55,413 bases of DNA, taken from NCBI GenBank assembly GCA_045586685.1, contig JAZNAU010000050.1:1-55413 (forward strand), given 5' to 3'. Each line of letters begins with the position of its first letter. The first letter of the stretch is position 1. The notes beneath the pieces were generated by a model, which made no database searches, was not told the DNA's origin, and saw only the letters and a program-made list of their open reading frames with translations. Below are positions 1,898-55,413 of the stretch, piece by piece. The translations under genes were made by a program, and so were the position numbers. Source of the DNA: Clostridia bacterium (GTDB lineage: Bacteria; Bacillota; Clostridia; HGM11514).

Positions 1898-1899
1898 GG

Positions 1900-28349: not shown

Positions 28350-28354
28350 AATTG

Positions 28355-28383: not shown

Positions 28384-28426
28384 AAGTAAAGGAAATGGTA
28401 ATATTTTACAAAGAGGTGGTTAAAAA

Positions 28427-38967: not shown

Positions 38968-39975
38968 TTATGATTCTTGATTTTTATATTCCATCAGACG
39001 CGCTGCAATCTGAACTGCATTGGCAGCAGCGCCCTTTCTGATATTGTCAGCCACAACCCACAGATTCACACCGGATTCGATACTTTCGTCACGGCGGATT
39101 CTGCCTACATAGGTTTCATTAGTACCTGTAGCAGTAATAGGCATGGGATAAATCTGATTTTCTAGATCGTCCTGCACCACAATACCGGGGGCATTTTCCA
39201 ACACTGCTCTCAGTTCGTTTAAGTCAAATTGTTTTTCAAATTCCAAGTTGATAGATTCACTGTGTCCGTTAAAAACAGGAACACGTACAGTGGTTGCGGT
39301 AACACGGATAGAATCATCGTGGAGAATCTTCTGTGTTTCCTTAATCATTTTAATTTCTTCTTTTGTATAACCGTTTTCGGTAAATACGTCAATGTGAGGC
39401 AGACAGTTTCCTGCAATGGGATAAGGGAACTTTTTGGGTGCTTCACCCTTTAAACCGTTTTCAAGATCCGTATATCCTGCCATGCCGGCACCAGATACTG
39501 CCTGATAAGTAGAATAAATGACACGTTTGATTTTATATTTATCGTGCAAGGGTTTTAATGCAACCATTGCCTGAATGGTGGAGCAGTTGGGGTTTGCAAT
39601 AATGCCTTTGTTCCAAAGAATATCCTCTGGATTTACTTCAGGAACCACCAAGGGAACTTCAGGGTCCATTCTCCATGCGCTGGAGTTGTCGATTACAACA
39701 ACGCCATGCTCTGCTGCGATGGGAGCATATTTTTCGCTGGTGGAACCTCCTGCAGAGAAGAGGGCAATGTCGATATCCCCGTTATCAAAAGAATGCTCAT
39801 TGAGCTCCTGTACCACATATTCCTTTCCCATAAATTCAAGTTTTGTTCCTGCTGAGCGGGCAGATGCGAACATGGTGTATTTGGAAATGGGCAGATTGCT
39901 TTCCTGCAATACCTTTAAAAAGGTTCTTCCTACCATTCCTGTTACACCGACTACTGCTACATGATACTGTTTCAT
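38968..39975 (-). CDS. asd: Aspartate-semialdehyde dehydrogenase
   Basis: GVTGMVG; DNSSAWRM; NPNCSTIQ; RVPVFNGHS; DNIRKGAAANAVQI. Confidence 0.97.
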   Translation of the reverse strand: MKQYHVAVVGVTGMVGRTFLKVLQESNLPISKYTMFASARSAGTKLEFMGKEYVVQELNEHSFDNGDIDIALFSAGGSTSEKYAPIAAEHGVVVIDNSSAWRMDPEVPLVVPEVNPEDILWNKGIIANPNCSTIQAMVALKPLHDKYKIKRVIYSTYQAVSGAGMAGYTDLENGLKGEAPKKFPYPIAGNCLPHIDVFTENGYTKEEIKMIKETQKILHDDSIRVTATTVRVPVFNGHSESINLEFEKQFDLNELRAVLENAPGIVVQDDLENQIYPMPITATGTNETYVGRIRRDESIESGVNLWVVADNIRKGAAANAVQIAARLMEYKNQES

Positions 39976-40107
39976 GTTAATGAAGCCTCCAATCAAATTC
40001 CGTATGTATACTTATAATTATTATAATATTATCATTTTTTTGGAAAAATGTCAATGGTTTTTCACAACTATTTTGTAAAATCAAGTTATAGGTTGGTTTA
40101 CCCTTGC

Positions 40108-40136
40108 TTGACAATCCTTTTTTTTTATAGTATAAT
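40108..40136 (+). promoter_or_regulatory. sigma-A promoter for aroF-pheA
   Basis: TTGACA-17 nt-TATAAT; the spacer contains a T9 run. Confidence 0.8.
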
Positions 40137-40177
40137 TATTAAAATACATGAATTTTACAGAAAGAAGTTGGTAGAAG

Positions 40178-41200
40178 ATGATCATTATTATGAAATCCCG
40201 TGCACCGAAGCAAGCTGTGGAAGCTATGATTTCATCTCTGGAAAACCAGGGAATGAAGGTGCAGATTAACACCGGTGTGGAATGTACGGTACTGGGTGTG
40301 TTGGGAAATACGCACGAGTTAAATAAAGCTCAGATTGAAATGAATCCTCAGGTAGAACGGGTTATGGCCGTTCAGGAGCCTTTTAAAAAGGCAAACAGAA
40401 AGTTTCATCCCGAGGATACGGTGATTACCATTGGAGATAAAACCATTGGCGGTGGAAATCTGGCGGTTATTGCAGGTCCTTGTTCAGTGGAAAGCGAAGA
40501 ACAGATTGTGGAAGTTGCAACCCGCGTGAAAGCGGCAGGAGCGGGATTTTTACGTGGCGGCGCATTTAAGCCTCGTTCTTCTCCCTATGCATTTCAAGGC
40601 TTGGGAACAGATGGGTTAGAGTTGTTGGATGAAGCAAGAAACATGACAGGACTTCCTGTTGTTTCCGAATTAACTTCTTTGCGTCATCTGGATCGGTTTG
40701 TGGAAATGGTAGACGTGATTCAGATTGGTGCAAGAAACATGCAGAATTTTGAGTTGCTTCGTCAGGTTGGTAAAACAAGAAAGCCTATTTTATTAAAGCG
40801 GGGTATGTCCAGCACCATCGAAGAACTTCTTCTTTCTGCTGAATACATAATGTCTGAAGGAAATGAGCAGGTGATTCTTTGTGAACGAGGAATCAGAACC
40901 TTTGAAACAGTTACCAGAAATACGCTGGATTTATCTGCAGTACCTATTTTAAAACGATTAAGCCACTTGCCTGTTGTGGTCGACCCCTCTCATGCTACCG
41001 GTCTTGCATGGATGGTGGAGCCTATGTCTATTGCAGCAGCAGCAGTGGGGGCAGATGGTTTGATTGTGGAAGTACACAACAATCCTTCCTGTGCGTTGTG
41101 TGATGGAAAACAATCCATTACACCGGATGAATTTGATGTTTTGATGAAAAAGCTGAAAATTGCCAGCCGAATTCACGAGGAGGCCGAAAATGAGCAATGA
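40178..41200 (+). CDS. aroF: DAHP synthase, type I-beta with N-terminal regulatory domain
   Basis: IAGPCSVES; RGGAFKPR; QIGARNMQNF; LCERGIRTF; DPSHATG. Confidence 0.95.
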   Translation: MIIIMKSRAPKQAVEAMISSLENQGMKVQINTGVECTVLGVLGNTHELNKAQIEMNPQVERVMAVQEPFKKANRKFHPEDTVITIGDKTIGGGNLAVIAGPCSVESEEQIVEVATRVKAAGAGFLRGGAFKPRSSPYAFQGLGTDGLELLDEARNMTGLPVVSELTSLRHLDRFVEMVDVIQIGARNMQNFELLRQVGKTRKPILLKRGMSSTIEELLLSAEYIMSEGNEQVILCERGIRTFETVTRNTLDLSAVPILKRLSHLPVVVDPSHATGLAWMVEPMSIAAAAVGADGLIVEVHNNPSCALCDGKQSITPDEFDVLMKKLKIASRIHEEAENEQ

Positions 41201-42335
41201 ACTGGAAGATCTGAGACGAGAGATTGACCAAATCGACCGTCAACTGATTGCTCTTTTTGAACAGCGTTTTGCAGTAACATCCCGTGTGGGAGAATTAAAA
41301 AGTAAAACTGGGAAACCTGTGTTTGATCCTAAACGGGAAAAGGCAGTTGTGAAGGACAGATTAGCACGTGTGCAAAATTCGGAAAATAAAGCAGCGATAA
41401 ACAGCCTGTTTGAAATGATGATGGCAAACAGCCGTCAAGGACAACGAAAAACCTGTCGTGCAGGAATTGAAAATTTGATGCAGTCCTTGCCTGTATGCAA
41501 TGAGGTCGCATTGTCCGAGGGAGCGGTTGTTGCCTATGGCGGTGTGGAAGGAAGCTTTGGAGAAGAGGCATTGCTTCATTTTTTCGGTGAAAACACAAAT
41601 CGGACAGGATTTCCCTATTTTTCTCAGGTCATTGATGCAGTTCGTTGCGGAGAGGCAGAATACGGTGTTTTGCCCATTGAAAATTCTTCTACGGGTGCTG
41701 TCATAGAAGCCTATGATTTGCTCCGTGACAGTGGGTGTTATATTGTGGGGGAAGTAAAGCTCCCTATTCGTCATTGCCTGCTGGGTCTTCCTGAGGCGGA
41801 TATGCAAACGATTCAAAAAGTATATTCTCATCCTCAGGGTTTAGCACAAAGCAGTCAATTTTTACAGAAGCATTCCAATTATCAGTGTGTGTCCTATTTA
41901 AATACGGCAATGAGTGCGAAATTGGTGCGGGACAGCGATGATTTGTCTTTGGCGGCAATCGGCAGTAAACGGTGTGCCCAGACTTATGGACTGAAGGTAT
42001 TGGCAGAGGGAATCAACAATTCTTTGCATAATCATACTCGATTTGTGATTATTTCAGGAAAGAGTTTATTTTCAGAGCAAGCCAATAAAATCAGTATTTG
42101 CTTTGATTTGGCTCATACAACAGGTTCACTGTACCAGATTTTGACGTTTTTTTCCATTAACAAAATCAATTTATTAAAACTGGAATCCCGTCCTATACCC
42201 GAAAAAAATTGGGAATACAGCTTCTTTATTGATTTTGAAGGAAATTTAAAGGAACAGGCGATTCAGGATACCCTTTGTTCTGTGGTGGACGAAGTCAGCC
42301 GATTCCGCTATTTAGGAAATTACATTTGTGGATAA
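41190..42335 (+). CDS. pheA: Chorismate mutase / prephenate dehydratase
   Basis: LRREIDQID chorismate mutase domain; PIENSSTG; SHPQGL; NHTRF; KLESRP ACT domain. Confidence 0.93.
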   Translation: MSNELEDLRREIDQIDRQLIALFEQRFAVTSRVGELKSKTGKPVFDPKREKAVVKDRLARVQNSENKAAINSLFEMMMANSRQGQRKTCRAGIENLMQSLPVCNEVALSEGAVVAYGGVEGSFGEEALLHFFGENTNRTGFPYFSQVIDAVRCGEAEYGVLPIENSSTGAVIEAYDLLRDSGCYIVGEVKLPIRHCLLGLPEADMQTIQKVYSHPQGLAQSSQFLQKHSNYQCVSYLNTAMSAKLVRDSDDLSLAAIGSKRCAQTYGLKVLAEGINNSLHNHTRFVIISGKSLFSEQANKISICFDLAHTTGSLYQILTFFSINKINLLKLESRPIPEKNWEYSFFIDFEGNLKEQAIQDTLCSVVDEVSRFRYLGNYICG

Positions 42336-42349
42336 CACCTTATTTAATT

Positions 42350-42375
42350 AAATCTCCCGAAAACGGGAGATTTTT
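42350..42375 (+). terminator. Terminator after pheA
   Basis: AAATCTCCCG-aaaa-CGGGAGATTTTT. Confidence 0.85.
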
Positions 42376-42464
42376 GTTGTTTTAAAGGTCTTACTTGTAG
42401 CTTAAGTTTCGTTGCTCTGGGGCATAGGCTTTTGATGATAGTGCAAGTCATAGCAACTTTTTTA

Positions 42465-42521
42465 TGTTATAATAAAACTATAGGGGCAAGAAAGGGATTC
42501 GTTTTTACGGGTTCCTTTTTT
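42465..42521 (+). promoter_or_regulatory. Extended -10 promoter and terminator-like leader hairpin of the phage-like operon
   Basis: TGTTATAAT (42465-42473) with a poor -35 (AAGTCA); then AAGGGATTCGT-tttt-ACGGGTTCCTT followed by T residues. Confidence 0.5.
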
Positions 42522-42554
42522 CGTTCTCTAAATTTATCAGAAAGGAGAGAGGCT

Positions 42555-43865
42555 ATGTTTGACCAAATGCTCAGACGGATGCGGAAGGTAGCGGAGCTTG
42601 AACCTACGGAAAGCCAAATGGAAGAACAGATTGGCTTATGGGGAAGGATGTATCGCAATCGGGCTCCCTGGTGCAAGGGGGATGTGCACAGTCTGAATCT
42701 TCCTGCGGTCATTGCGGGGGAAATTGCTGCAATGACAACCATGGAGTTTTCCTCCAATGTAACAGGCAGCAACCGGGCAAAATTTTTATCCAAACAGTAT
42801 GAGCCTGTCTTAAGAGACCTTCGAAAAATAACCGAATATGCTGTTGCCATGGGCGGAGTTGTGTTAAAGCCTTATGTGTCGGGTAAAACAATCGGGGTTG
42901 ATTGTGTACAGGCAGATTCCTTTTTACCAATCAGCTTTGACACCACCGGTCGTCTGACGGGGGCGGTGTTTGCCGATTGTTATGTATCGGGAAAAGCAGA
43001 ATACCTTCGGTTAGAACGCCATCTGCTGACAAAAGATGGGTATGAAATCTGTAACTTTGCTTATGAAAAGAGCGGAACAAGCTGGAAGGAAATTTCACTT
43101 TCTGCTGTTCCAAAATGGGCAGATTTGACCCGTAAAATGACAGTAGAAGGGATTGAGAAACCTCTATTTGCTTACTTAAAAATGCCCGGTGCCAATATGG
43201 TGGATACAAGCTCCCCCTTAGGGGTTTCTGTGTATCAGAGAGCGATCGATTTGATTGAGCAGGCTGACCGACAGTATTCCCGTCTGTTATGGGAATTTGA
43301 AGGGGGCGAGCTTGCTATTGACGCCAGTGCAGAAGCCTTGGGCTATGACCGTGACGGAAAAGCTGTTATGCCAAAGCTAAACCGCCGTTTGTTCCGTGGA
43401 TTGGAAATTGATGCAGGCGGACAGGACTTATACAGTGTTTTCTCCCCTCAGTTGAGAGATGAATCTCTGATAAACGGCTTAAATGAAATCTTAAGCCGGA
43501 TTGAGGATGCCTGCGGTCTGGCACGGGGAACGATATCTCACCCTGAAGGAGAAATCCGCACTGCTACAGAGCTCAAAATGATGCGTCAGCGGTCTTATAC
43601 TACTGTCCGTGATATTCAAAAATCCATTGCGACGGCGTTACAGGATTTGCTGGACGCCATGGATGTATGGACCGATGTGTACGAGCTGGCAGCAAAGGGA
43701 AATTGGGAAGTGTCATTTCGGTTTGATGATTCGGTTCTTACAGACCGCAGTCAGGAATTTGCAGAGAAAAAACAGCTGGTAGAGGCGGGGATTATGTTTC
43801 CTTGGGAATTTCGGATGTGGTATCTGGGCGAGAGTGAGGAGCAGGCAAAGGAGGTATTCAAGTGA
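42555..43865 (+). CDS. Phage portal protein (A118-type)
   Basis: SLNLPAVIAGEIA; SSPLGVSVY; WEFEGG; FSPQLRD; RTATELK; FDDSV; RBS AAGGAG. Confidence 0.85.
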   Translation: MFDQMLRRMRKVAELEPTESQMEEQIGLWGRMYRNRAPWCKGDVHSLNLPAVIAGEIAAMTTMEFSSNVTGSNRAKFLSKQYEPVLRDLRKITEYAVAMGGVVLKPYVSGKTIGVDCVQADSFLPISFDTTGRLTGAVFADCYVSGKAEYLRLERHLLTKDGYEICNFAYEKSGTSWKEISLSAVPKWADLTRKMTVEGIEKPLFAYLKMPGANMVDTSSPLGVSVYQRAIDLIEQADRQYSRLLWEFEGGELAIDASAEALGYDRDGKAVMPKLNRRLFRGLEIDAGGQDLYSVFSPQLRDESLINGLNEILSRIEDACGLARGTISHPEGEIRTATELKMMRQRSYTTVRDIQKSIATALQDLLDAMDVWTDVYELAAKGNWEVSFRFDDSVLTDRSQEFAEKKQLVEAGIMFPWEFRMWYLGESEEQAKEVFK

Positions 43866-44212
43866 ATCAGGAATTTTTATCCGGCTTAGGGCTGGAGGAA
43901 GAAACGGTAACACAGATTTTGGAAGAGTATGACAGAGAACGTCAGGAAACTGCGTTTCAAAACGAGCTTTACAAACAACTGGAGCTTGCGGGTGCAAAAT
44001 CTGTAAAAGCGGCGGTTGCGTTGCTGGATTGTGAAGGAATGTCTTTGGAGGAGGGCAATATTTCGGGTCTTTCTGAACAACTGTCCGTTCTCAAAGAGGA
44101 GCATCCCTACTTATTTCAGACTCAGCTTCCCCGTGCAGTAGCAAGCACAATGGGCGGCGGAGAATCGGAAAAATCTCTTTTTTCGGTAATTCGTTCTGCT
44201 GCCGGACTTTAA
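43862..44212 (+). CDS. Capsid scaffolding protein (Gp20-like), shortened
   Basis: EFLSGLGLEEE; AGAKSVKAAVALLD; GLSEQL..LKEEHPYLF; GTGA overlap with the portal gene. Confidence 0.75.
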   Translation: MNQEFLSGLGLEEETVTQILEEYDRERQETAFQNELYKQLELAGAKSVKAAVALLDCEGMSLEEGNISGLSEQLSVLKEEHPYLFQTQLPRAVASTMGGGESEKSLFSVIRSAAGL

Positions 44213-44239
44213 TTTAAAATCGAAAGGATATGATAGTTT

Positions 44240-45112
44240 ATGGCAAATTCAATTACGTTAGCAGATAAATTTTTACCCATGGTGGACGAAATTTATAAGG
44301 AACAGTCTGTGACAGAATGTCTGGACACCACCTCACAGCCCGATGTAAGCGGTGCAGACGAGGTGCAAATTTTGAAAATTTCCACTACCGGTCTGGGAGA
44401 TTATTCCCGTGAAACAGGGTATCCTCAGGGAGATGTTACTGCCTCCTGGGAAACCTTGCAACTGACTGAAGAACGAGGCAAGGAATTTTCTATTGACAGA
44501 ATGGATGACGAGGAAATGCTGGGGGTTGCTTTTGGTACACTCACCGGTTCTTTTGTCAGAGAACAGGTTGTTCCAGAGCTGGATGCTTACCGTTTTGCAA
44601 AATATGCATCCACTGAAGGAATTTCCTCTGCATCAGAAGATCTGACCGCAGAAACCGTTTTGGCGGCCATTGATGAAGCAACCCGTCAGATGGATGAGGA
44701 CGAGGTGCCTCAGACAGGAAGAATTCTGTTTGTCAGCAGTGAGTTGAAGCCTCTTCTGAACAGTGCACTGACTCGTACATGGACCAGTCAGGGAAATGTC
44801 AGCACGGTGCTGACCACTTATAACGATATGGTAGTAAAATATGTTCCGAAGGGTCGTTTTTACAGCAAAACCACTATTAACGACGGCTCGTCTGAATGGG
44901 GATATACAAAGGCAGAGGATGCCAAGGATATTAACTTTATGATAGTGTATCCCCCTTCTGTTGTTCAGGTAAAAAAAGTAATGATTCCTAAAATCTTTAC
45001 CCCTGACCAGAATCAGGAGAAGGATGCCTGGAAGTTCCAGTTCCGTCTGTATCACGATGCTTTTGTTCTGGAAAATAAGAAAAAAGGCGTTTATCTCCAT
45101 ACTGTAGCGTAA
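44240..45112 (+). CDS. Major capsid protein
   Basis: MANSITLADKF..DEIY; GLGDYSR..GY; FSIDRMD.EE; VVPELDAYRF; YHDAFVLENKKKG; follows the scaffold gene. Confidence 0.82.
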   Translation: MANSITLADKFLPMVDEIYKEQSVTECLDTTSQPDVSGADEVQILKISTTGLGDYSRETGYPQGDVTASWETLQLTEERGKEFSIDRMDDEEMLGVAFGTLTGSFVREQVVPELDAYRFAKYASTEGISSASEDLTAETVLAAIDEATRQMDEDEVPQTGRILFVSSELKPLLNSALTRTWTSQGNVSTVLTTYNDMVVKYVPKGRFYSKTTINDGSSEWGYTKAEDAKDINFMIVYPPSVVQVKKVMIPKIFTPDQNQEKDAWKFQFRLYHDAFVLENKKKGVYLHTVA

Positions 45113-45126
45113 AGGAGTGATGCCGT

Positions 45127-45450
45127 ATGTACGCGGATTTTACTTATTATACAGACGTCTTTCACGGTAGAAAAATCCCGGACAGCGACAGTTTTCTTTC
45201 TGTAGCAGCGGGGGCGGGAGCAGCACTTGACCGTCTTACCTTTGGCAGGTTGACTCAATCCACTCCCGGTGCGGCAGATGCTCTTTGTGCGGTATGTGAA
45301 GTATTTTATACTCGATTACACCGAGAAGGAATTAAATCGGAAAGTGTGGACGGGTACAATGTGACTTACTCCGATGAAGGATTGAGCAGAAATTTACGGC
45401 AAACGGTACGTCTTTATCTGGAACCTGCTTTGCTGTATCGGGGATGTTAG
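45127..45450 (+). CDS. Head-tail adaptor (connector) protein
   Basis: MYADFTYY; LDRLTFGR; SESVDGYNVTY; LLYRG; follows the capsid gene. Confidence 0.7.
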   Translation: MYADFTYYTDVFHGRKIPDSDSFLSVAAGAGAALDRLTFGRLTQSTPGAADALCAVCEVFYTRLHREGIKSESVDGYNVTYSDEGLSRNLRQTVRLYLEPALLYRGC

Positions 45451-45460
45451 GAGGGATTGG

Positions 45461-45790
45461 ATGGTTTGGAACCAAACGGTCACCCTGTTTCACAAGGAGA
45501 TTGAAAACCGTAAGGAAAGTTGGACTTCTCAGGTGTATCGGGGTGTATCCGCTGTGACGGTGCAAAAATCATCTCCTTATTCAATGGGTATGGAGCCGGA
45601 CAATCAACTGATTGCCCAGATTCCCCATAAGGCGTTACTCAATATTGCACCGGGGGATCGTTTACTGTTGGGAGAACATACCGTACAGGTGGATTCTTCT
45701 GAATTTCAAAAGGCTTTTGTTGTGGTAAGTGTAACAGATAATCGCCGTGGACAAGGAGAACTTTGGCATTATAAGGTGGTGTGTCAATGA
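45461..45790 (+). CDS. Putative head-closure protein
   Basis: TVTLF; PGDRLLLG; VTDNRRG..HYKV; assigned mainly by position. Confidence 0.55.
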   Translation: MVWNQTVTLFHKEIENRKESWTSQVYRGVSAVTVQKSSPYSMGMEPDNQLIAQIPHKALLNIAPGDRLLLGEHTVQVDSSEFQKAFVVVSVTDNRRGQGELWHYKVVCQ

Positions 45791-46176
45791 TTGTTTGCAA
45801 CCTTATTTTAAATAGTACAGCCAAAATATTAGAAAAAAGGGGACTGACCCCAAAAGGAGCTATTCAAAAAAGACTGGATCAGGAAGTTGAGCTGAAATGC
45901 CGTCCGTACGTTCCCCGTAAAGATGGATATCTGGAACAAAGCGGAACAGCTTCTTTTCCCTCTATTGGCTTTGTTCAATGGGATAGACCCTATGCGAAAT
46001 ATCAGTATTATGGCTATTTAATGTTGGGAAAGAAAACTAAAATTTTGACCGGAATCCCCTTAAAAAGCCGTGGCGGTGGATTGCGTGGCTCCCGATGGTT
46101 TGAGCGAATGAAAATAGACTGTATCGGGTCCATTGTACAGTCCCTTGCCAAACTGGCAGGAGGGAAAGAAAAATGA
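45787..46176 (+). CDS. Neck/tail-completion protein (A118 'minor capsid' family)
   Basis: YVPRKDGYL; PYAKYQYYG; GSRWFERMK; ATGA overlap. Confidence 0.7.
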   Translation: MIVCNLILNSTAKILEKRGLTPKGAIQKRLDQEVELKCRPYVPRKDGYLEQSGTASFPSIGFVQWDRPYAKYQYYGYLMLGKKTKILTGIPLKSRGGGLRGSRWFERMKIDCIGSIVQSLAKLAGGKEK

Positions 46177-46583
46177 GTATCTTAGAACATATTAGAGATT
46201 TTATTGCCCAGTGTCCTTTGTTGACAGATGGCTGTATTCACATGGATTTTTTGGATGACAGAATGTATGGTTATATGTTAGAGGGTGTACCTGTAGCAGA
46301 GGTGGTACGGCGGTATGCAGACGGAGGAAGTGTTCGTCGCTATGAGTTTGTATTTGGTGCAAGGCTTCCTTACGGAAGCAGTCAGACCGCTGAAAATCAT
46401 CACTTTTATCAGCAGTTTTCTCAATGGCTGGAGCAACAGTCAAATGCCGGAATATTTCCCGAGCTGGGAGAGGGAAAAGTGCCTCACAGTATAAAGGCAT
46501 TGTCCCATGGTTATTTAATGGACGGTGATGGAAACTGCGCCAGATACCAGATTCAATGTGAACTGGAATATTATCAGGATTAG
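46173..46583 (+). CDS. Putative tail terminator protein
   Basis: IRDFIAQCP; RRYADGGS; FSQWLEQQ; ARYQIQCELEY; precedes the tail tube gene. Confidence 0.6.
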   Translation: MSILEHIRDFIAQCPLLTDGCIHMDFLDDRMYGYMLEGVPVAEVVRRYADGGSVRRYEFVFGARLPYGSSQTAENHHFYQQFSQWLEQQSNAGIFPELGEGKVPHSIKALSHGYLMDGDGNCARYQIQCELEYYQD

Positions 46584-46594
46584 GAGGAAATCAA

Positions 46595-47080: not shown

Positions 47081-47093
47081 GCAGGTGAGAAAA

Positions 47094-47417
47094 ATGCAGA
47101 CCATGAAATTTCAATTTGGAGAACTGAAACAACAGATAGATTTATCAGATGTGGATTTTGTATTGAGATATGAACAGGCAATTACAGACTACGAAGAAGG
47201 AGTCAAGGGGTTGAACCGTGAGGTTGCTCCTTCTGCTCAACTAGAGCAAGTGTGTCAGTTGTTTTTCTCAATGTTTGACAAACTGTTTGGTGAAGAAAGT
47301 GCAAAGAAAATGTTTGGAGAAACCAAAAGCGTTGCCCTTTGTACAAAAGCATTTACCCAGTTGCTTCGCGCTATGAATCAATACGCCGGCGCTCTAAAGA
47401 AAGAGGACAAGATATGA
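47094..47417 (+). CDS. Tail assembly chaperone
   Basis: D..DVDFV.RYE; FDKLFGEESAKKMFG; lies between the tube and Gp15 genes. Confidence 0.6.
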   Translation: MQTMKFQFGELKQQIDLSDVDFVLRYEQAITDYEEGVKGLNREVAPSAQLEQVCQLFFSMFDKLFGEESAKKMFGETKSVALCTKAFTQLLRAMNQYAGALKKEDKI

Positions 47418-47950
47418 ATTTTTGGGTAACGCCTTTACCCACCACGGTGACAATCGGAGGAAAGGAGTATCCGATTTATACTGACTTTCGTGTATGGGTA
47501 AAGTGCGGGATGCTGTTAGAGCGAGAGAAAAATCCTATTTCACTGGCGGTGGAGTTGCTGACTCTTTGTTATCCGGCTCTGCCCCCCTCGTTTGAGGGGG
47601 CAATGGAAGGAATTTTTTCCTTTTATACCGGTCAAAATCAAACAAAAAGGGACGGAGCAAAAAGTAAACCTCTTTATAGTTTTGACTATGATGGAGATTT
47701 GATTTATGCCGCCTTTTACAGTCAATACGGAATTGATTTGGCACATGCCTCCCTGCATTGGTATCAATTTCGGGCATTATTTGCAGGCTTAGAAGAAAAC
47801 AGCCGATTTGCTGAGGTGCTTGGTGCAAGAGAAATCAATCTTAGTAAAATTTCTGATCCGGCACAAAAGGCGTATTATAGAAAGTTAAAAGCAAACTATC
47901 ATCTGCCGACGGAGGTTGATGCGGCAGATGGATTGGAGGCTCTGTTTTGA
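47414..47950 (+). CDS. Gp15-family phage protein (A118)
   Basis: LPTTVTIGGKEYPIYTDFR; YSFDYDGDLIYAAFYSQYGIDL; LHWYQFRALF. Confidence 0.85.
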   Translation: MNFWVTPLPTTVTIGGKEYPIYTDFRVWVKCGMLLEREKNPISLAVELLTLCYPALPPSFEGAMEGIFSFYTGQNQTKRDGAKSKPLYSFDYDGDLIYAAFYSQYGIDLAHASLHWYQFRALFAGLEENSRFAEVLGAREINLSKISDPAQKAYYRKLKANYHLPTEVDAADGLEALF

Positions 47951-48001
47951 TCAGCTCACGGCAAAAACAGAAAAAAATTTGTGAGCAGAAGGGTTGATGT
48001 T

Positions 48002-48988
48002 ATGAGTGACGGTGCAATCGTTATATCCACAGAATTGAATACGGATGATTTTATCGCTGCCTTGGAAGGCTTGGCGGGTCTTGCAAGAAGTGCCATGGAA
48101 AAGGTGGTTGGTGTGTTTACAGAGCTTAAGGATCGGGTTGTTCAAGCTTTGTATAATGCCAAAGAAATGCTTTTAACGGCGGCCACAAGCTGGTTGGAAG
48201 GATTGGGATTGGCAGCAAGCTATGCAAAGGAATTTGTATTTACCACTTTGGGACAAATGATTACAAACGTGGTTAATAATTTGCTGGGGAATGCGAAATC
48301 GCTGTTATCAGCCGCAGCCAACTTTTTTCAAGGCTTGCCAACAGCGGCAACTCAGAAGGGGACTGCCTGCCTGCAAGCGTTAGGCAATTTAATCACTCAA
48401 ATTTTAAATACGGTAATCAGTTCTTCGGAGCGTATGCTGGCGACGGCATTCTCCTTTTTTCAGGGGATTGTAACAGCAGTCAGCGGAATTACCAATAATG
48501 TATTGACAACACTGGGAAGTCTCATCAGTCTGGCAGTGACAAAGGTTAAGGAAGGATATACGCAAATGTTTGAAGCAGGAAAACAGTTAGCCTCCGGAAT
48601 CTGGGACGGAATTACATCTATAGCATCCGGCTGGTATGAGAATATTTCCACTTTGGTTAGCGGCTTGGTTACTTCGGCAAAAAATGCAGTTACCGCAGGA
48701 TTTGGCGGTGTGACATCTTTTATCGGAAAAAGTCTGTCCAATTCCGGTTTTTCAGTACCAAACAATTTTTTCAATAGTGGGTCAAGTAATGTATCAGGAA
48801 TTTCCAATGCCAATTTATTGCCGACAATAAGCACATTTTCTTCTTCAAACGGAAATTCAGGTGGCATTACAAATGTAAATCATTATAATACCACGTATCA
48901 ATTTGTTCCTGCTAACGGGTCTATTTCTGATCAGATTCGTACTGCAAGAGCACAGGATCAGATTAACCGATTGAGAGGAGGACTTTAA
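48002..48988 (+). CDS. Very short tape-measure protein
   Basis: MSDGAIVISTEL N-terminus; amphipathic 44-aa repeats; lies between Gp15 and Dit. Confidence 0.75.
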   Translation: MSDGAIVISTELNTDDFIAALEGLAGLARSAMEKVVGVFTELKDRVVQALYNAKEMLLTAATSWLEGLGLAASYAKEFVFTTLGQMITNVVNNLLGNAKSLLSAAANFFQGLPTAATQKGTACLQALGNLITQILNTVISSSERMLATAFSFFQGIVTAVSGITNNVLTTLGSLISLAVTKVKEGYTQMFEAGKQLASGIWDGITSIASGWYENISTLVSGLVTSAKNAVTAGFGGVTSFIGKSLSNSGFSVPNNFFNSGSSNVSGISNANLLPTISTFSSSNGNSGGITNVNHYNTTYQFVPANGSISDQIRTARAQDQINRLRGGL

Positions 48989-49824
48989 TGACAGAGTTTA
49001 AGTTTCAAAACGAATACGGCACATTACAACTAAACAAAAAACCTTGTCGCGTTCTATCGGTTGTGGGCTTAGGGCTTCCAGATAGGGAATTTGAAACGGT
49101 ACGATATGCCAATTCTCACGGACAGGAAACTCTGTCTGTCACCGATCAGCCGAGAATTATCAGTATGTCCGTAGATTTGTTAATGAAGGAAGGCTTGGGA
49201 CGGGAGCTTGCAAAAATGACAAAAATCTTATACCGTCCCGGAACTCTTACTGTAAGAAGTCGAGGAAAAACAAGAGTTATTCCCTGTCGGTGTACTGCTT
49301 GGGAAGAGGATACTCGTACTCCTGTTCTTGCAAAGCTGGTATTACAATTTACTTGTGATAATCCCGCATTTTTAGAGGAGAGGGAACGAATTGAGGGGGT
49401 CTTTGAACGGACTGATTTAATTCATGATTCCTTTGTTCTTCCTATGGTATTTACAAAACGGACCACAGAAAAGGATGTAGTAAATAACGGAGATTTACCC
49501 GTTCAGCCTGTTTTATTGTTAAAATGCATTCAAACAGGGACGGAGGGAATAAAAATCACTAATTGCACTCCATCAGGAGAGGAACAGACTTTTGCACTAA
49601 CAACCCCTATGCTGGTTGGAGAAGAAATTCAGGTGGATTTTCCAAACCGACGGATAGAATCTAACATGAGAGAGAATGTCATTCACTTTATTTCAGACGA
49701 TACGTTTCTCCATTCCTTTGTGTTAGAGCAGGGATGTAATCGTATTAACGTATCATCAGGGGTCGGAGCGGATTTATCTATAGTTTGTAAATTTACTCCA
49801 AAATATTTAGAAGCTTTGTACTAG
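48988..49824 (+). CDS. Distal tail protein (Dit)
   Basis: GLGLP..GQ..PRII; LQFTCDNPAF; VNNGDLPV; LEQGCNRI; follows the tape-measure gene. Confidence 0.75.
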   Translation: MTEFKFQNEYGTLQLNKKPCRVLSVVGLGLPDREFETVRYANSHGQETLSVTDQPRIISMSVDLLMKEGLGRELAKMTKILYRPGTLTVRSRGKTRVIPCRCTAWEEDTRTPVLAKLVLQFTCDNPAFLEERERIEGVFERTDLIHDSFVLPMVFTKRTTEKDVVNNGDLPVQPVLLLKCIQTGTEGIKITNCTPSGEEQTFALTTPMLVGEEIQVDFPNRRIESNMRENVIHFISDDTFLHSFVLEQGCNRINVSSGVGADLSIVCKFTPKYLEALY

Positions 49825-49833
49825 GAGGTGCCT

Positions 49834-50991
49834 ATGGAGGATATACGTTTTTACAATTTTGAAGGACAGCTTCTTTCCATTGTTCATGATGTAGTGTCCG
49901 TAAATTGGCGAATTTGCTATAATGACGTGGGCACCTTTGAGGCTCATTTTAATTTACAGTCTTCTTTTGTTCCCGAGATTGCACTTACGCCGTGGTTAGT
50001 TGCGGTTCAAGGGAGATTGCAAGCCATCATTACAGGACGGCAAATGGGAGAAGAACTAATTTTATATGGAAAAACACCAAACTGGTTGTTATGCAAACGA
50101 GGGATTCCTCCTTTTGTTACAGGGGATATGACAGAAGGAGCGGGACTTACAGTCCCTCAGATTGTAAGCTGGGTGTTTTCTAAGGCTTTTGATAGTAACG
50201 ATCCTGTTACGGAGGAAGCAGCAATGGGAGAATTTTTAAAAGAACCCATTTCCTTTTGGAGAAATACTACCAATCAGGCATTTGAAGTGATTCGTGACTG
50301 TGCAGACAGGGAGAATGCGGGGCATCGGATTTGGTTTGAGCCAAAAACAGGAACCTGGCATTTTCAATTATATAAGGGAAATGAGCTTCCTGTTATGTTA
50401 AGTGAGGATAACCGAAATGCGTATGAAACGGAATACACCGAGGATGTTTCAGAGCTGGCAACGGCAGGATGGTACGGCCGGGAGATTGTTTCCCGAGGAG
50501 ATTACAATCCGGTCATAAATAAACCTAAATTAAAAAACGGATTGCCGGAAAATTTAGGAAAGTATTATCAGGTAACCCAAAACGGCTCCCGATTCGGTCT
50601 GACAATGAAGGAGGGAGAGTACCTTCTTTGTGATTCCGAGGAAGGAAGTTGGAGAATTGTGGATGGTGATGAAATTCAAAAGCTGGATTGTATCTGGCTG
50701 AAACTCAATGGAGATTCTTCTGCAACAGGAATTTATCGTTGGGATGAAATCCTTTCTGCTCAGACCGAAAGCGAGGCACAAGATGAGCTTACCAAGAAAA
50801 AACGAATTCAAAATATTTCTTTGGTTACTCGTGGCATGGAATATGGTAAAGATTATCATCTTGGAGATATCCTACGGGTGCAAAAAACAGCAGGCGGAGT
50901 ACAATTTACCCAGAAAAAACGGGTTGTTGCAGTAAATATTTGGTACGAACAGGGCAATTCAGGTCAGCAACCTGAATTTTCTGAACAATAA
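49834..50991 (+). CDS. Baseplate hub / tail tip protein (ReqiPepy6 Gp37-like)
   Basis: SVNWRICYNDVGTFE; FQLYKG; YGKDYHLGDIL; follows Dit. Confidence 0.7.
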   Translation: MEDIRFYNFEGQLLSIVHDVVSVNWRICYNDVGTFEAHFNLQSSFVPEIALTPWLVAVQGRLQAIITGRQMGEELILYGKTPNWLLCKRGIPPFVTGDMTEGAGLTVPQIVSWVFSKAFDSNDPVTEEAAMGEFLKEPISFWRNTTNQAFEVIRDCADRENAGHRIWFEPKTGTWHFQLYKGNELPVMLSEDNRNAYETEYTEDVSELATAGWYGREIVSRGDYNPVINKPKLKNGLPENLGKYYQVTQNGSRFGLTMKEGEYLLCDSEEGSWRIVDGDEIQKLDCIWLKLNGDSSATGIYRWDEILSAQTESEAQDELTKKKRIQNISLVTRGMEYGKDYHLGDILRVQKTAGGVQFTQKKRVVAVNIWYEQGNSGQQPEFSEQ

Positions 50992-51003
50992 AGGAGGTAG
51001 AAT

Positions 51004-51813: not shown

Positions 51814-51827
51814 AGGGGAGTGAAAAT

Positions 51828-53144
51828 ATGGCAAGATATGAAGCAAAGCTTGATATTGGCGGAGAATTTGAAGCAAGTTTTTCCCTGCCGTTATTTACCG
51901 GTGATTCGGGGAATAGTGTTGCTCTTGAATTTTATAATCGGGGAAAGGCTTACGATATGAGCGGTGCGATGATTTATGCCAGACGGGGAGATGGAACCGT
52001 TCTGGCAACTTCAGGAGTAACACAAGGGAACAAAGCGGAGTTTACTTTGTATAATAACATGTACTCTTATCCGGGAGAGCTGCAGGTGCAGGTATCTGTA
52101 GTTGATGTTTATGGGAATTTTTTGACCAGCGGTGTATTGTATTTTACGGTACAAGAAGGGTTTTCTGAGCAGTCGGAAGGGGAGGGAAGCAATGATTTTT
52201 GCAATCTGACTTCCTTGATTAGACAAGTAGGGGAAGGCTTGAGCCAAATTGAACGGGCGGAATCTGCTTCTAATAAGATTGAGTCCTTTTTACAGTCAAT
52301 TGAAAATAGTAAGATTGAACAATTATCAGAATCCGAAGTAGATACATTTCTAGAAGGATATGCCATTGTTACAAGTGATATTTCGTCAGATTCGAATCTT
52401 GTTACCGGAAAACAAAAATGGTTGCTTTTTGCAAGTTTTACTAGTGAACTGGTAAATCGTTATGAAGTTTCGCAGTTAAGATATTATGAAAATAAGTGGC
52501 AAAAGCGAAGCGGACTATGTTTTGAAGGACTGACGGGAGATTGGAATTGTAGTTGGGATGATTGGTCTGACGTAATACCAGATAATCTCATAACCTACAA
52601 AGGTTCTAAACCCTACTATTCAAATTTACCTACTATAGATAATTCTGTTGGTGATGTGTGGAATGTTTTGTATCCAAGCGAAGTATCAATAAAGGCTATG
52701 CCGATTACCGTAACTGATGTTTCATATGAGGAACAAAAAGATGTTTTTGAAGCCATGGGAAGTACCAAGAACTATAAGGACTTTGAAGTAGTAGCGTTAG
52801 AACATGAAGGATTTATCTATAATTCTAATGGACAAAAGGTAGCAAATGGATTTTTTGTCTATTATGATGGTGGTTTTTGTATTTTGTATCTTTCGAATAT
52901 TATAGAAAGAGGAGATTATTATTTTTACTTTATTGATGAATCACTTAGCCAATATCATACAGATTTCTTAAAGTTATACGAAACTGGTGAAGATTGTAAA
53001 TTTATTTGGAATGGTAACGAATGGGAGACCTTTACAGGCAATATGTCAAAGTATGCTACTAAAGATGAAATTGGTGACATCGAAACCGCTCTAACCGAAA
53101 TCGAAGCCCTTCAAAATTCTTACATAGGCGGTGATAGTGCATGA
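51828..53144 (+). CDS. BppU-like baseplate / tail-fibre protein with variable C-terminus
   Basis: N-terminal GDSG..RRGDG..PGELQVQV BppU-like domain; fibre motif YKGS..LP..GDVWNV. Confidence 0.6.
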   Translation: MARYEAKLDIGGEFEASFSLPLFTGDSGNSVALEFYNRGKAYDMSGAMIYARRGDGTVLATSGVTQGNKAEFTLYNNMYSYPGELQVQVSVVDVYGNFLTSGVLYFTVQEGFSEQSEGEGSNDFCNLTSLIRQVGEGLSQIERAESASNKIESFLQSIENSKIEQLSESEVDTFLEGYAIVTSDISSDSNLVTGKQKWLLFASFTSELVNRYEVSQLRYYENKWQKRSGLCFEGLTGDWNCSWDDWSDVIPDNLITYKGSKPYYSNLPTIDNSVGDVWNVLYPSEVSIKAMPITVTDVSYEEQKDVFEAMGSTKNYKDFEVVALEHEGFIYNSNGQKVANGFFVYYDGGFCILYLSNIIERGDYYFYFIDESLSQYHTDFLKLYETGEDCKFIWNGNEWETFTGNMSKYATKDEIGDIETALTEIEALQNSYIGGDSA

Positions 53145-53755
53145 GTATTGCAGAGAAATTGACAACCATTGCAGAGAATGTCCAAAAGGTGTATGAAGCA
53201 GGGGAAAAGTCGGAATATGATAGATTTTGGGATAATTTCCAACGGAATGGAGAGAAAATACCTTATACTTATGCTTTTCAATCTTCGCGTTGGAATGATG
53301 ATAATTATAACCCAAAATACCCTATCAATGCTTCTAACGCAACAAATATATTTGTGAACAATAAAAACATAACTGACACAAAAGTACCTATCATTCTAAC
53401 AGGAACAACGATTAACAATACATTCGCTTGGAGCGGTCTTGTAACAATAAGAGAATTGATAGTTGATGAAACTACAAAGCAAGCATCAAATGCTGCTGGA
53501 TTTATCGGTCTTTCTTCTTTGCAAAACTTAACAATTACAGGGACTATTGCGTTTGATTTAAATTTGATGTCAAGTCCTTTGACTACTGCAAGTGTGTTAA
53601 GTGTTTTAACGGCACTTACGAAAGATTCAACATTAGCAAGCGGAAGAACGGTGACATTTATGTCAGAATTGCAGGCAAGCATAGAAGCAGATATACAATG
53701 TGCTGAACAGATTGCATTAGCGGTTGCGTCAGGTTGGACGGTTGCTTATGCGTAG
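53141..53755 (+). CDS. Hypothetical phage protein, possible fibre-associated solenoid
   Basis: ATGA overlap; LRR/BspA-like spacing; LTTASVLSVL...GWTVA C-terminal cap. Confidence 0.5.
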   Translation: MSIAEKLTTIAENVQKVYEAGEKSEYDRFWDNFQRNGEKIPYTYAFQSSRWNDDNYNPKYPINASNATNIFVNNKNITDTKVPIILTGTTINNTFAWSGLVTIRELIVDETTKQASNAAGFIGLSSLQNLTITGTIAFDLNLMSSPLTTASVLSVLTALTKDSTLASGRTVTFMSELQASIEADIQCAEQIALAVASGWTVAYA

Positions 53756-53767
53756 GAGGTGTAAAAT

Positions 53768-53947
53768 ATGATTATTGATACCATTAAAGTTTTAAAGGCA
53801 GAGGAAGGTATGAGATTGACAGATGGTGACGTCATTGCTAAAGTCGTTCTGCTTCCTGAAAACAGAACTGAAGATGAATTTACAGAGATTACCCAAGCAG
53901 AAGCAGAAGAGAAAATGAAAGAGGTTGAGACAGATGGACTTGCATGA
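53768..53947 (+). CDS. Small 59-aa phage protein, absent from the ORF track
   Basis: RBS AGGAGGTG; MIIDTIKVLKAEEGMRLTDGDVIAKVVLLPENRTEDEFTEITQAEAEEKMKEVETDGLA; fills the gap between its neighbours. Confidence 0.75.
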   Translation: MIIDTIKVLKAEEGMRLTDGDVIAKVVLLPENRTEDEFTEITQAEAEEKMKEVETDGLA

Positions 53948-54236
53948 AAGAGTACAAGCATTAGAACATGATATTCCGAAAATGAGGGAACGTCTCTCTG
54001 CTTTGGAACAGGACGAAAAATCAGTACACAGAAGATTAGGAAATCTGGAACAGCTGACGGAAAGTGTTCATGTTATCGCAACAGAAATCAAAGCAATGCG
54101 GGAAGACGTGAACCAAATCAGGGAGGAGCTGAATACATTAAGAGGTAAGCCGGCAAAACGGATGGAGTTGGTGATTACCGCCTTGATTTCATCTGTTGTA
54201 ACCGGTTTGGTGAGCATGGCATTAAGGGGGTTTTGA
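53934..54236 (+). CDS. XhlA-like coiled-coil lysis accessory protein with a C-terminal TM helix
   Basis: Heptad coiled coil, then VITALISSVVTGLV; directly upstream of the holin. Confidence 0.6.
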   Translation: MDLHERVQALEHDIPKMRERLSALEQDEKSVHRRLGNLEQLTESVHVIATEIKAMREDVNQIREELNTLRGKPAKRMELVITALISSVVTGLVSMALRGF

Positions 54237-54237
54237 C

Positions 54238-54498
54238 ATGACACAAACAATCATTCGAACCATTGTGTTGGTGCTGGCAATTGGGAATCAACTATTGACC
54301 TCGTGGGGGAAAAACCCCTTGCCTTGGTCGGAAGAGGAATTGTACGAGGGCGTAAGTGCGGGGATTACGGCACTCTCCGCTCTGATTTCCTGGTGGAAAA
54401 ATAATTCTTTTACTAAGGAGGCACGGCTTGCTGACCAATATTTAAAAGCATTAAAGGCAGGTGAAAAAAATGGAAGTTGTAAAACAACTGGTGCCTGA
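54238..54498 (+). CDS. Holin, SPP1/XhlB family
   Basis: TIIRTIVLVLAIGNQLL..GKNPLP..SWWKNNSFTKEA..AD. Confidence 0.88.
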   Translation: MTQTIIRTIVLVLAIGNQLLTSWGKNPLPWSEEELYEGVSAGITALSALISWWKNNSFTKEARLADQYLKALKAGEKNGSCKTTGA

Positions 54499-55195
54499 AT
54501 CAAAATGGCCGATAAAATGTCCCTACGAAATGGTTCCAGAATTTGTGGTGGTGCATAATACTGCCAATGATGCCTCTGCAAGAAACGAAATTGCTTATAT
54601 GAACAGTAACGGAGAGTCTACCTCGTTTCATTATGCAGTGGATGATAAAGAGGCGGTTCAGGGAATTTTGGAATCCAGAACCGCATGGCATGCGGGGGAC
54701 GGTGCGGGAGAGGGCAATCTCAAAGGAATCGGCATTGAAATCTGTTACAGCTTAACGGGGGGCGAACGGTTTTTAAAGGCGGAGGACTTGGCGGCAGAAT
54801 TGATTGCCGATATTTTAAACCGTTACGGTTGGGACATTTCCCATGTGACCAAGCATCAGGATTATTCCGGAAAATATTGCCCCCACAGAACGTTAGATTT
54901 GGGTTGGGAACGATTTTTAAATAAAGTGAAAGACAGAATGGGAGGACTTAGTATGACCCAATACGAAGAATTAAAAGCATTGTTGCAGGGGATTGAGACA
55001 AGGCTCTCTGCCATAGAAGGCAAAATGATTTACAATTATATTGATAGCAATATGCCCGATTGGGCAAGACCCACCATTCAAAAGTTGGTGGATAAAAAAT
55101 TGTTGGTTGGCAACGAAAAGGGAGAGCTTGGTTTGACCGAGGAAATGCTCAAACTGTATGTTGTCAATGACAGAGCGGGATTATACAACGAATAA
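54470..55195 (+). CDS. Endolysin, N-acetylmuramoyl-L-alanine amidase (Amidase_2)
   Basis: VVHNTAND; SFHYAVDD; AWHAGDG; IGIEIC; HQDYSGKYCP; C-terminal PDWARPTIQKL..G module. Confidence 0.9.
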   Translation: MEVVKQLVPESKWPIKCPYEMVPEFVVVHNTANDASARNEIAYMNSNGESTSFHYAVDDKEAVQGILESRTAWHAGDGAGEGNLKGIGIEICYSLTGGERFLKAEDLAAELIADILNRYGWDISHVTKHQDYSGKYCPHRTLDLGWERFLNKVKDRMGGLSMTQYEELKALLQGIETRLSAIEGKMIYNYIDSNMPDWARPTIQKLVDKKLLVGNEKGELGLTEEMLKLYVVNDRAGLYNE

Positions 55196-55200
55196 ACAAA

Positions 55201-55235
55201 GGGGATTGTAGCAAATTTAGTTTGCTACAATCCCC
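55201..55235. repeat. Palindromic repeat family A copy 3, bidirectional terminator between the endolysin and metA
   Basis: GGGGATTGTAGCAAA-tttag-TTTGCTACAATCCCC. Confidence 0.75.
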
Positions 55236-55239
55236 TATA

Positions 55240-55413
55240 TTATTTTTTACTCACCTTTGAAATATCATAAGGCGTAATCTGATAAACGTAGTAATTGAGC
55301 CAGTTGGAGTAAAGGAGATTTGCATGAGAACGCCAAGTAACTTGCGGTTTCTTTTTAGGGTTATCATCGGGAAAGTAGTTTTTGGGCACAGCTATTTCCA
55401 ATCCTTTATCCAC
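55240..55413 (-). CDS. metA: Homoserine O-acyltransferase, C-terminal fragment (runs off the window edge)
   Basis: Manual translation: [57 protein letters not shown], the MetA C-terminal signature. Confidence 0.9.

Follow-up and report, generated by a model that had tools for sequence, protein, structure and literature searches.

A conserved siphovirus-type particle operon without terminase genes in Oscillospiraceae-type bacteria, a candidate for a domesticated gene transfer agent-like or PBSX-like particle

We describe an operon of phage late genes in a 55,413-nt stretch of DNA (contig JAZNAU010000050.1, hereafter the window), which is chromosomal DNA of a Clostridia or Oscillospiraceae-type bacterium. 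The unit spans 42440-55195 (12.76 kb), from a conserved non-coding leader to the stop codon of an amidase gene, and between 42555 and 55195 it holds 20 genes on the same strand, including that of the portal, with a largest intergenic gap of about 30 nt (Table 1). One conserved control region precedes this complete set of genes for procapsid formation and head completion, for a short non-contractile tail with its baseplate and for lysis; a terminase and a minor head gene are both absent. To the left lies pheA, which encodes a fused chorismate mutase, prephenate dehydratase and ACT protein (Pfam PF01817, PF00800 and PF01842) and ends at 42335. To the right, a terminator hairpin that forms an almost perfect palindrome separates the amidase gene from a convergent minus-strand fragment encoding a metA-like homoserine O-acyltransferase (PF04204, E 3.9e-20). 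An Rfam search over 39900-55413 gave only sub-threshold miRNA- and snoRNA-like matches on this hairpin (55190-55298), which are surely spurious, and none in the leader.

Table 1. Features of the particle operon and its two bordering terminators (positions in the window).
Feature	Position	Strand	Evidence or remark
pheA intrinsic terminator	42350..42373	+	10-bp stem, then T-run; left neighbour, outside the element
Conserved non-coding leader, 115 nt	42440..42554	+	nearly identical in window, L002 and L004
Leader upstream box	42440-42457	+	conserved
Leader extended -10, TGnTATAAT	42465-42473	+	conserved
Leader terminator-like hairpin and U-run	42488-42521	+	conserved
Leader purine-rich ribosome-binding box	42543-42552	+	conserved
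Portal protein, 436 aa, A118/SPP1-type	42555..43865	+	PF05133 E 1.5e-10; phrog_533 E 1.1e-111; TIGR01542 E 2.9e-37 (below model cut-off)
Short scaffolding protein, 116 aa	43862..44212	+	PF06810 E 1.2e-17; phrog_194
Major capsid protein (MCP), 290 aa	44240..45112	+	phrog_422 E 1.7e-81, full length
Head-tail adaptor	45127..45450	+	phrog_541 E 1.2e-16
DUF6751 protein, connector position	45461..45790	+	PF20536 E 1.2e-12; phrog_3366
Minor_capsid_2 / head-completion protein	45781..46176	+	PF11114 E 1.3e-11; phrog_556
Tail completion protein	46173..46583	+	phrog_3266 E 7.7e-38
Probable major tail protein, 161 aa	46595..47080	+	phrog_3099 (function unknown) E 2.7e-37
DUF6673 protein, tail-chaperone position	47094..47417	+	PF20378 E 5.7e-16
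Gp15-family protein	47414..47950	+	PF06854 E 8.1e-38; 38% identical to phiCD38-2 gp14
Very short tape measure protein, 335 aa	47981..48988	+	matches internal parts of tape-measure PHROGs only (700-3100 positions)
Distal tail protein (Dit)	48988..49824	+	phrog_33 E 4.1e-13; PF22768 E 0.0013 (below cut-off)
Tal-like minor tail protein	49828..50991	+	PF14594 E 4.4e-15; phrog_538
Baseplate-region protein, family unknown, 269 aa	51004..51813	+	66-83% identical in four loci
BppU-like baseplate or receptor-binding protein (p438), 438 aa	51828..53144	+	Atlas features search
Strain-specific 204-aa protein (p204)	53141..53755	+	GC content at third codon positions (GC3) 0.28
Small acidic 59-aa ORF (p59)	53768..53947	+	no family match (PHROGs, Pfam)
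XhlA-like coiled-coil membrane protein	53925..54236	+	phrog_1193, phrog_937 ('hemolysin'); PF10779 XhlA weak, E 0.0089
SPP1-type holin	54238..54498	+	PF04688 E 3e-25; TIGR01592 above cut-off
N-acetylmuramoyl-L-alanine amidase endolysin (Amidase_2), last gene	54461..55195	+	PF01510 E 3.6e-21; phrog_3088 E 1.7e-70
Bidirectional terminator hairpin	55200..55236	.	17-bp stem, terminator scan; common to amidase and convergent metA-like gene

The absence of a terminase from the unit is real and old. Pfam recognised a terminase family in none of the 67 open reading frames (ORFs) scanned (23 + 23 + 21, a few cluster ORFs being counted twice with different starts), and neither PHROGs nor NCBIfam did so in any of the 20 cluster ORFs, though most of these match some PHROGs family; a minor head protein family was likewise found by these three collections in no ORF of the window. 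We also used two small-subunit (terS), two large-subunit (terL) and three minor-head proteins from the phages phiCD38-2, RG-TP1 and PMBT5 as tblastn queries against all six frames of the window and of five related loci (L002-L006, described below). The best match, with an E of 0.039, lay inside rpoC, and no six-frame remnant was present in any of the six sequences, while positive controls from the same phages were readily recovered (MCP 1e-60, scaffold 4e-11). When the cluster was scanned with a regular expression for the Walker A motif, no strict P-loop turned up; the most permissive arm of the expression matches RSRGKT in Dit, a protein that no family search ties to an NTPase. As for a cryptic terminase among the unnamed ORFs, only p438 is of terL size, but it has no Walker A motif, and its conserved N-terminus, variable C-terminus and BppU lead in the Atlas features search speak otherwise, so that this candidate was rejected. 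These searches bear out the sequence-only reading of this DNA, which had seen no terminase in the cluster and had given terS-terL-portal-minor head as the phage arrangement. This is indeed the order in phiCD38-2 and RG-TP1, and in the fetched part of PMBT5, which begins inside the portal gene, a minor head gene stands a few genes after the portal.

The same reading had made the portal the first gene after the pheA terminator, and this holds with a corrected start. The portal begins not at the listed TTG 42432 but at ATG 42555, behind a purine-rich AGGAGAGAGG box, because 42440-42554 is the conserved non-coding leader and because the orthologue in L004 starts at the equivalent ATG; the leader therefore lies between terminator and portal. 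The overlap of the scaffold gene with the portal stop is also as described (GTG 43862, GTGA), with a GGAGG box 7 nt upstream, and an overlap of this kind suggests that the two genes are probably translationally coupled.

The unit recurs in other genomes. In a set of 5.8 billion proteins, Dit has no more than eleven relatives, including the window's own (64-100% identity, all 278-280 aa), and a scan of GTDB species genomes with the Dit alignment gave the five related loci, all in metagenome-assembled genomes (MAGs) labelled Clostridia or Oscillospiraceae. Gene order is the same in every part that each contig covers, and tblastn showed no internal stops or frameshifts. The left junction is visible in three of the six loci (window, L002 and L004), and the terS-terL genes that sister strains might have kept at this place are in none of them. 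The window and L002 share the aroF-pheA-leader-portal junction, and the identity of this junction in an independent assembly argues against a misassembly at about 42.4 kb. The left flank of L004 instead encodes a ferredoxin, an FAD-binding oxidoreductase and an Asp-Al_Ex permease, followed by the portal. At the right junction, visible in the window, L004 and L005 (three of six), the neighbours are the metA-like gene, AraC and DUF4838 genes, and rplJ-rplL with genes for a peptidyl-prolyl isomerase, LytR and a uracil-DNA glycosylase, respectively. In none of these visible flanks, those of the window included, is there a terminase, an integrase or a phage-type regulator. Homology between loci begins about 115 nt before the portal ATG and stops at the amidase stop codon (L004, L005). 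A misassembly or a recent deletion can thus be rejected as the source of the unit.

Of the five related MAG contigs, four break off within the cluster (at position 1 of L003, L005 and L006 and at 14303 of L002), the ends falling at portal codon 20, in the MCP gene, in the tape measure gene and in the p438 homologue. These breaks may come from near-identical cluster segments in co-occurring species or strains.

Selection on the genes supports the premise of a working terminase-less unit from which the sequence-only reading had started. Using our own Nei-Gojobori script, we estimated the ratio of nonsynonymous to synonymous substitutions (dN/dS) of 17 cluster genes in comparison with each locus that spans the gene concerned. 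Of the 63 gene-by-locus comparisons, three were saturated at synonymous sites, and the remaining 60 gave values between 0.003 and 0.324. Within the unit, constraint is strongest on the head genes, with a dN/dS of 0.08-0.12 for the portal and of 0.003-0.013 for the MCP, and the head-completion and adaptor genes are intact, at 0.06-0.21. The MCP is 96.6-99.7% identical across four related loci at a dS of 0.47-1.9; its conservation is therefore selective rather than a mark of recent transfer, and it is much tighter than that of the flanking aroF (dN/dS 0.044) and pheA (0.067). In the comparison with L002, the dS of cluster genes (0.30-0.69) brackets that of aroF (0.37) and pheA (0.56), which would be consistent with co-divergence of the unit with its host, and against L004-L006 synonymous sites are saturated. 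A decaying prophage remnant, in which pseudogenes, a dN/dS near 1 and a scattered occurrence among relatives would be expected, was rejected on these data, all genes being intact in all loci within the dN/dS range given above.

The portal is unrelaxed and shows no sign of decay. It is 44.5% identical to the portal of phiCD38-2 and 33% to that of RG-TP1, and its family counts 2867 matches, about 50% identical outside the clade of the element. In a phylogeny meant as a quick tree only, the element portals form one clade among these relatives (13 rows, approximate likelihood ratio support SH-aLRT 100, stem length 0.67). A set of 113 portal positions is at least 90% conserved among 53 outgroup portals; 95 of these are identical in all 11 element portals, and at 17 of the other 18 most element portals still carry the family residue. 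The MCP, 38.7% identical to that of RG-TP1, belongs to an unusually uniform family of 7568 matches that are mostly 63-70% identical. Sequence searches of the PDB with the portal, the MCP and a portal profile returned 0 matches. Aligned to three phage scaffolds of 184-190 aa, the scaffold keeps both ends and is without about 70 central residues. Among its best 150 representative homologues, 33 have at most 140 aa and 97 at least 170 aa; the idea of a short scaffold as a clade-specific trait that signals a small capsid is weakened by those 33, and the short forms may be a recurrent short class. A connector role for the DUF6751 protein is suggested by the position of its gene alone.

The leader is more strongly conserved than most of the coding sequence, the L004 portal being only 79.5% identical. 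It lies at about 3450-3567 in L002 and about 3310-3425 in L004, where the DNA upstream is unrelated to the window and the leader itself is still nearly identical. In the unit, this leader stands in place of the phage regulator-terS region; RG-TP1 encodes a sigma-like regulator before terS, and by eye the region before its terS has no similarity to the leader. Nor does the window contain a second copy of the upstream box or the extended -10 outside the leader, and a consensus scan accepted no sigma-70 -35/-10 pair within it. The leader RNA folds at -22.1 kcal/mol (z -2.18), with an equally good fold in 5 of 200 shuffles, and one G-to-A difference between loci in the hairpin converts a G-U pair to A-U. 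Since a terminator-like hairpin is combined with no recognisable -35, we infer a trans-acting activator and/or antiterminator: the leader would be a promoter that needs a trans factor, possibly with an attenuator, and the hairpin may act as that attenuator or the leader as the binding site of an unlinked regulator. In the Caulobacter gene transfer agent (GTA), according to the parts of PMC11150451 on which we draw, the cluster requires an activator and an antiterminator encoded elsewhere.

The tail genes predict a short tail. The 161-aa protein is probably the major tail protein, to judge from the position of its gene between those of the tail completion and chaperone proteins. The tape measure has 335 aa, compared with 393 aa from the first start codon of the L004 ORF and 618, 798 and 1716 aa in the phages. 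Tail length follows the tape measure at about 0.15 nm per residue, and a tail of roughly 50 nm is therefore predicted. The 269-aa baseplate-region protein had no match in Pfam, PHROGs or NCBIfam, and its nearest Atlas clusters are unnamed phage proteins. For p438, BppU_N clusters scored 0.93 in the Atlas features search, and all 10 of the 10 top family matches agree, which we treat as a lead only. Its N-terminal 154 residues are 93.5% identical to L002 and the remainder 55%, and the homologues differ in length; its AlphaFold model is poor (mean pLDDT 48.1, from a 3-sequence alignment), and the secondary-structure pattern was used only loosely. No family in Pfam, PHROGs or NCBIfam matches p204, which is possibly a receptor-binding partner. 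It has no counterpart in L004 and L005, in both of which the XhlA-like gene directly adjoins that of the p438 homologue, and among the related loci both p204 and p59 are present in the window only. This receptor-binding end (51828-53947 in the window, 12814-14301 in L002, 3916-5646 in L006) has a GC3 of 0.28-0.30, compared with 0.38 for the whole cluster, and it behaves as an exchangeable module, the fast-evolving part of the unit. Variability and low GC3 at this end are what one would predict for particles that have to attach to cells.

The gene order is collinear with that of the three phages, and from portal to endolysin it is the late-gene order of phiCD38-2 (Leicestervirus), the Ruminococcus phage RG-TP1 and Listeria A118-type phages. 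The homologues that these share with the unit include the portal, MCP, adaptor, tail completion and Gp15 proteins and the XhlA-holin-lysin cassette. In contrast, the phages have terS, terL and a minor head protein, none of which is in the unit, as well as scaffolds of 184-190 aa and tape measures of 618-1716 aa, where the unit has 116 and 335 aa; the region of RG-TP1 that was read also carries an annotated integrase and regulators, both missing here. Families of integrases, repressors and replication proteins were found by Pfam, PHROGs and NCBIfam scans in no ORF of the 55-kb window, and no att-like direct repeats flank the unit at either boundary. The GC content is 0.423 in cluster and host genes alike, and relative synonymous codon usage correlates at r 0.87 between cluster and host; for comparison, splitting the host genes into two halves gives r 0.97. 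An intact temperate prophage of the A118 or phiCD38-2 type was rejected, given that terminase, integrase, lysogeny control and replication genes are absent from the window and the related loci. Phage-inducible chromosomal island (PICI) satellites carry an integrase, a replication or primase gene and a terS that redirects packaging, and their capsid-forming types are without tail genes; here, integrase, replication gene and terS are all absent and the tail module is full, and we rejected this class as well.

Two kinds of chromosomally fixed phage derivatives resemble the unit in part. PBSX of Bacillus is a fixed particle operon with a lysis cassette of the XhlA-holin-amidase type, whose particles contain DNA of the host and act by killing, not by transduction; it differs in having a contractile tail, its own terminase subunits in the operon and a sigma-like regulator nearby. 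F-type tail bacteriocins such as monocins and F-pyocins share the fixed position, non-contractile A118- or TP901-like tail genes and the lysis cassette. They have no head genes, however, and the portal, scaffold, MCP and connector genes of the unit are present and constrained, for which reason a tail bacteriocin was rejected.

The closest architecture is that of the GTA of Brachyspira hyodysenteriae (BhGTA/VSH-1, Brachygtaviriformidae), which like the unit gathers its head, non-contractile tail and lysis genes in one chromosomal cluster that does not include terL. In the available text of PMC9662315, the 16.3-kb BhGTA cluster co-diversifies with its host, its particles have a 65 nm tail, and the only identifiable terL of the genome lies outside the cluster; this terL is conserved at 81-100% and its role is unvalidated. 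The same source reports phage homologues for no BhGTA gene other than the endolysin, whereas 16 of the 20 genes here match phage families. BhGTA belongs to another host phylum and has no detectable sequence relationship with the unit; its particles and DNA transfer have been demonstrated experimentally, while the unit is known from genes alone. FpGTA of Faecalibacterium shares with it the host order Oscillospirales, a domesticated particle, a holin-endolysin cassette and the lack of replication and integration genes. As presented in the sections of PMC12946183 cited here, FpGTA is probably podovirus-like and split into two operons, the first (operon I) with terS and terL beside the portal and the second with lysis and tail genes. 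Our unit has the reverse arrangement, in which head, siphovirus-type tail and lysis genes stand together and the terminase is absent.

A GTA viriform is defined, in the text of PMC9662315 that we used, by particle proteins of caudoviricete origin, mostly random host DNA, an endogenised genome often spread over several loci, a head too small for its own genome, mostly vertical inheritance and delivery of DNA to recipients. Caudoviricete ancestry is evident here, 16 of the 20 ORFs matching PHROGs head, connector, tail or lysis families. Endogenisation is suggested by the lack of integrase, att repeats, repressor and replication genes and by host-like GC content and codon usage; a structural cluster without terL, as in BhGTA, is present, and the missing terminase and regulator would suggest a multi-locus arrangement. 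We found no description of the unit, or of any terminase-less siphovirus-type particle operon in Bacillota, in the literature searched; PMC10538166, in the part available, concerns myovirus-type clostridial prophages and not this unit.

Collectively, we propose, with a probability of roughly one half, that the unit is the host-fixed, domesticated late operon of a temperate siphovirus of the A118/phiCD38-2/RG-TP1 type, which makes a GTA- or PBSX-like particle with the terminase and regulator encoded elsewhere. By its gene content it would work most like a GTA or a PBSX-type domesticated particle. In such a scheme, a trans-acting activator and/or antiterminator encoded elsewhere would switch the operon on in a subpopulation of cells, giving a particle whose tail would measure roughly 50 nm and whose head may be small. 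A terminase from an unlinked locus of the same genome would fill the heads with DNA, and connectors and tails would then join the filled heads, as in SPP1 and P22, where they do so after DNA packaging. The XhlA-holin-amidase cassette would release the particles, which would attach to related cells by means of the fast-evolving receptor-binding module and either deliver DNA, as a GTA does, or kill, in the manner of PBSX. Of the three accounts that the sequence-only reading had offered for the missing motor (an unlinked terL, a motor borrowed from a helper, or particles free of DNA), the underlying idea of a working unit without terminase stands, and the data decide among none of the three. The lack of a cognate terS might, as that reading supposes, favour non-specific packaging. 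Our analysis favours an unlinked terL in a split GTA, given the BhGTA precedent, the intact head-completion genes and the unrelaxed portal; DNA-filled heads are likewise preferred because the head genes are the most constrained, the portal is unrelaxed and all head-completion genes are kept.

Several points weigh against this proposal. The particle is predicted from its genes, and a terminase was located nowhere in the window or the five related loci, which makes the unlinked terminase an inferred step. The main clusters of BaGTA and CcGTA contain terL. So do the gene set of RcGTA, in which terL is the g2 gene (PMC9662315), and those of FpGTA (PMC12946183) and the Coprocola candidate (bioRxiv 10.64898/2026.07.08.737213), as far as the cited portions of these reports go; of the GTAs considered here, BhGTA is the exception in having its terL outside the cluster, and the role of that terL is itself unvalidated. 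Moreover, the unit lies in differing neighbourhoods across species, and strict vertical inheritance is directly backed by only one genome pair. The terminator scan did not flag the leader hairpin, whose fold is only modestly better than shuffles. As evidence for a small head, the short scaffold is weak, not being specific to the clade, and MCP conservation reflects in part a slowly evolving family.

Among the rivals, the one that survives best, although we regard it as unlikely, holds that the particles carry no DNA: empty headed particles, or heads and tails acting apart, would serve as a bacteriocin-like killer or a protein-delivery device with no terminase anywhere. This would explain why none appears in the 55-kb window or in the flanks of the five related loci. 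A lysis cassette and a variable receptor-binding module suit any extracellular particle, a killer included, and bacteriocins with non-contractile tails do exist in the F-type pyocins and monocins. These have lost their head genes, however, and the joining of tails normally needs a DNA-filled head. A DNA-free particle is also hard to reconcile with the strength of selection on the MCP and portal, with the family residues that the portal keeps in all 11 members at 95 of 113 conserved positions, and with four intact connector and completion genes. There is a small but appreciable chance that the clade has no terminase of its own, in which case the particles would be empty, carry non-DNA cargo or be filled only by the terminase of an invading phage; the unit would then be a selected headed device with no described counterpart. 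In the invading-phage case, it would be a capsid and tail decoy: phage DNA would be drawn into short-tailed particles that are a dead end, and the cell would be lysed.

Packaging might instead depend on a helper. The unit would provide capsids, tails and lysis, and a co-resident or infecting phage the terminase, which would make it a reverse satellite or a decoy capsid. The portal does belong to a very large Clostridia phage-type family (the 2867 matches noted above), related phages with a compatible module order exist, and satellites without part of the packaging or structural set are known. Satellites have also been raised as alternatives to GTA candidates, in the available part of bioRxiv 10.64898/2026.07.08.737213. 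Nevertheless, with no integrase, replication genes or att repeats, the unit has no means to profit from being packaged, and divergence that tracks the host together with strong selection across species is difficult to square with sporadic, fast-evolving helpers. Docking between portal and terminase is, in addition, usually specific. We therefore consider a helper quite unlikely.

A further thought is that the cell keeps the structural proteins for some other benefit, such as obstructing the assembly of related phages that infect it, in which case complete particles would not be what is selected for. Purifying selection shows that the proteins matter and not for what, and the trans factor could be the late activator of an infecting phage; a gene for a sigma-like regulator precedes terS in RG-TP1. 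Yet every covering locus keeps the order from portal to endolysin, including tail-tip, receptor-binding and lysis genes that intracellular interference would not need, and we give this explanation little weight. Finally, a misassembly at about 42.4 kb, or a remnant left by recent deletion of terS, terL and the minor head gene, would account for a gene order that is a temperate phage late operon minus exactly these genes and for the several related contigs that break inside the cluster, but it is scarcely credible given the same junction in L002, the same leader-portal start in another context in L004, genes free of frameshifts and stops in every locus with dN/dS of at most 0.324, and synonymous sites saturated against L004-L006.

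The domesticated late operon that we propose bears on an existing gap. Long-read sequencing of virus-like particles from the gut has revealed that host DNA is packaged in a GTA-like manner in Ruminococcaceae, Oscillospiraceae and Christensenellaceae, and in the portion of that study drawn on here (PMC12946183) the responsible loci were found in Faecalibacterium only, with no GTA locus found in the Oscillospiraceae and Christensenellaceae MAGs concerned. In the text available from a mouse-gut preprint (bioRxiv 10.64898/2026.07.08.737213), loci are proposed for a few taxa and the same gap of packaging without a locus is reported for Pelethomonas. For such activity the operon described here, which is conserved, under selection and of siphovirus type, offers a concrete candidate locus in Oscillospiraceae-type MAGs, and the missing terminase and regulator could be sought with its conserved leader as a sequence tag. 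Should terL prove to be unlinked, the BhGTA architecture would have a second case, in another phylum, with a bearing on how packaging-specificity genes and particle genes come apart during domestication; should terL be lacking altogether, the unit would represent a novel type of phage-derived device.

The remainder of the window carries host genes, among them ABC transporter genes, rpoB-rpoC, rpsL-rpsG-fusA-tuf, asnB, dapA-dapB-asd and aroF-pheA. At 3691-4671, a regulator with WYL/WCX domains adjoins two ABC exporter genes and has no visible tie to the particle operon. Directly after tuf, at 27906-29074, lie a 147-aa ORF without a family and a 215-aa protein whose single-stranded DNA-binding (SSB) domain covers residues 110-204 only, its N-terminal extension being unexplained. 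In the aroF-pheA pair (40178-42335), which is syntenic in L002, aroF encodes an N-terminal ferredoxin-like FXD regulatory domain and overlaps the start of the tri-domain pheA.

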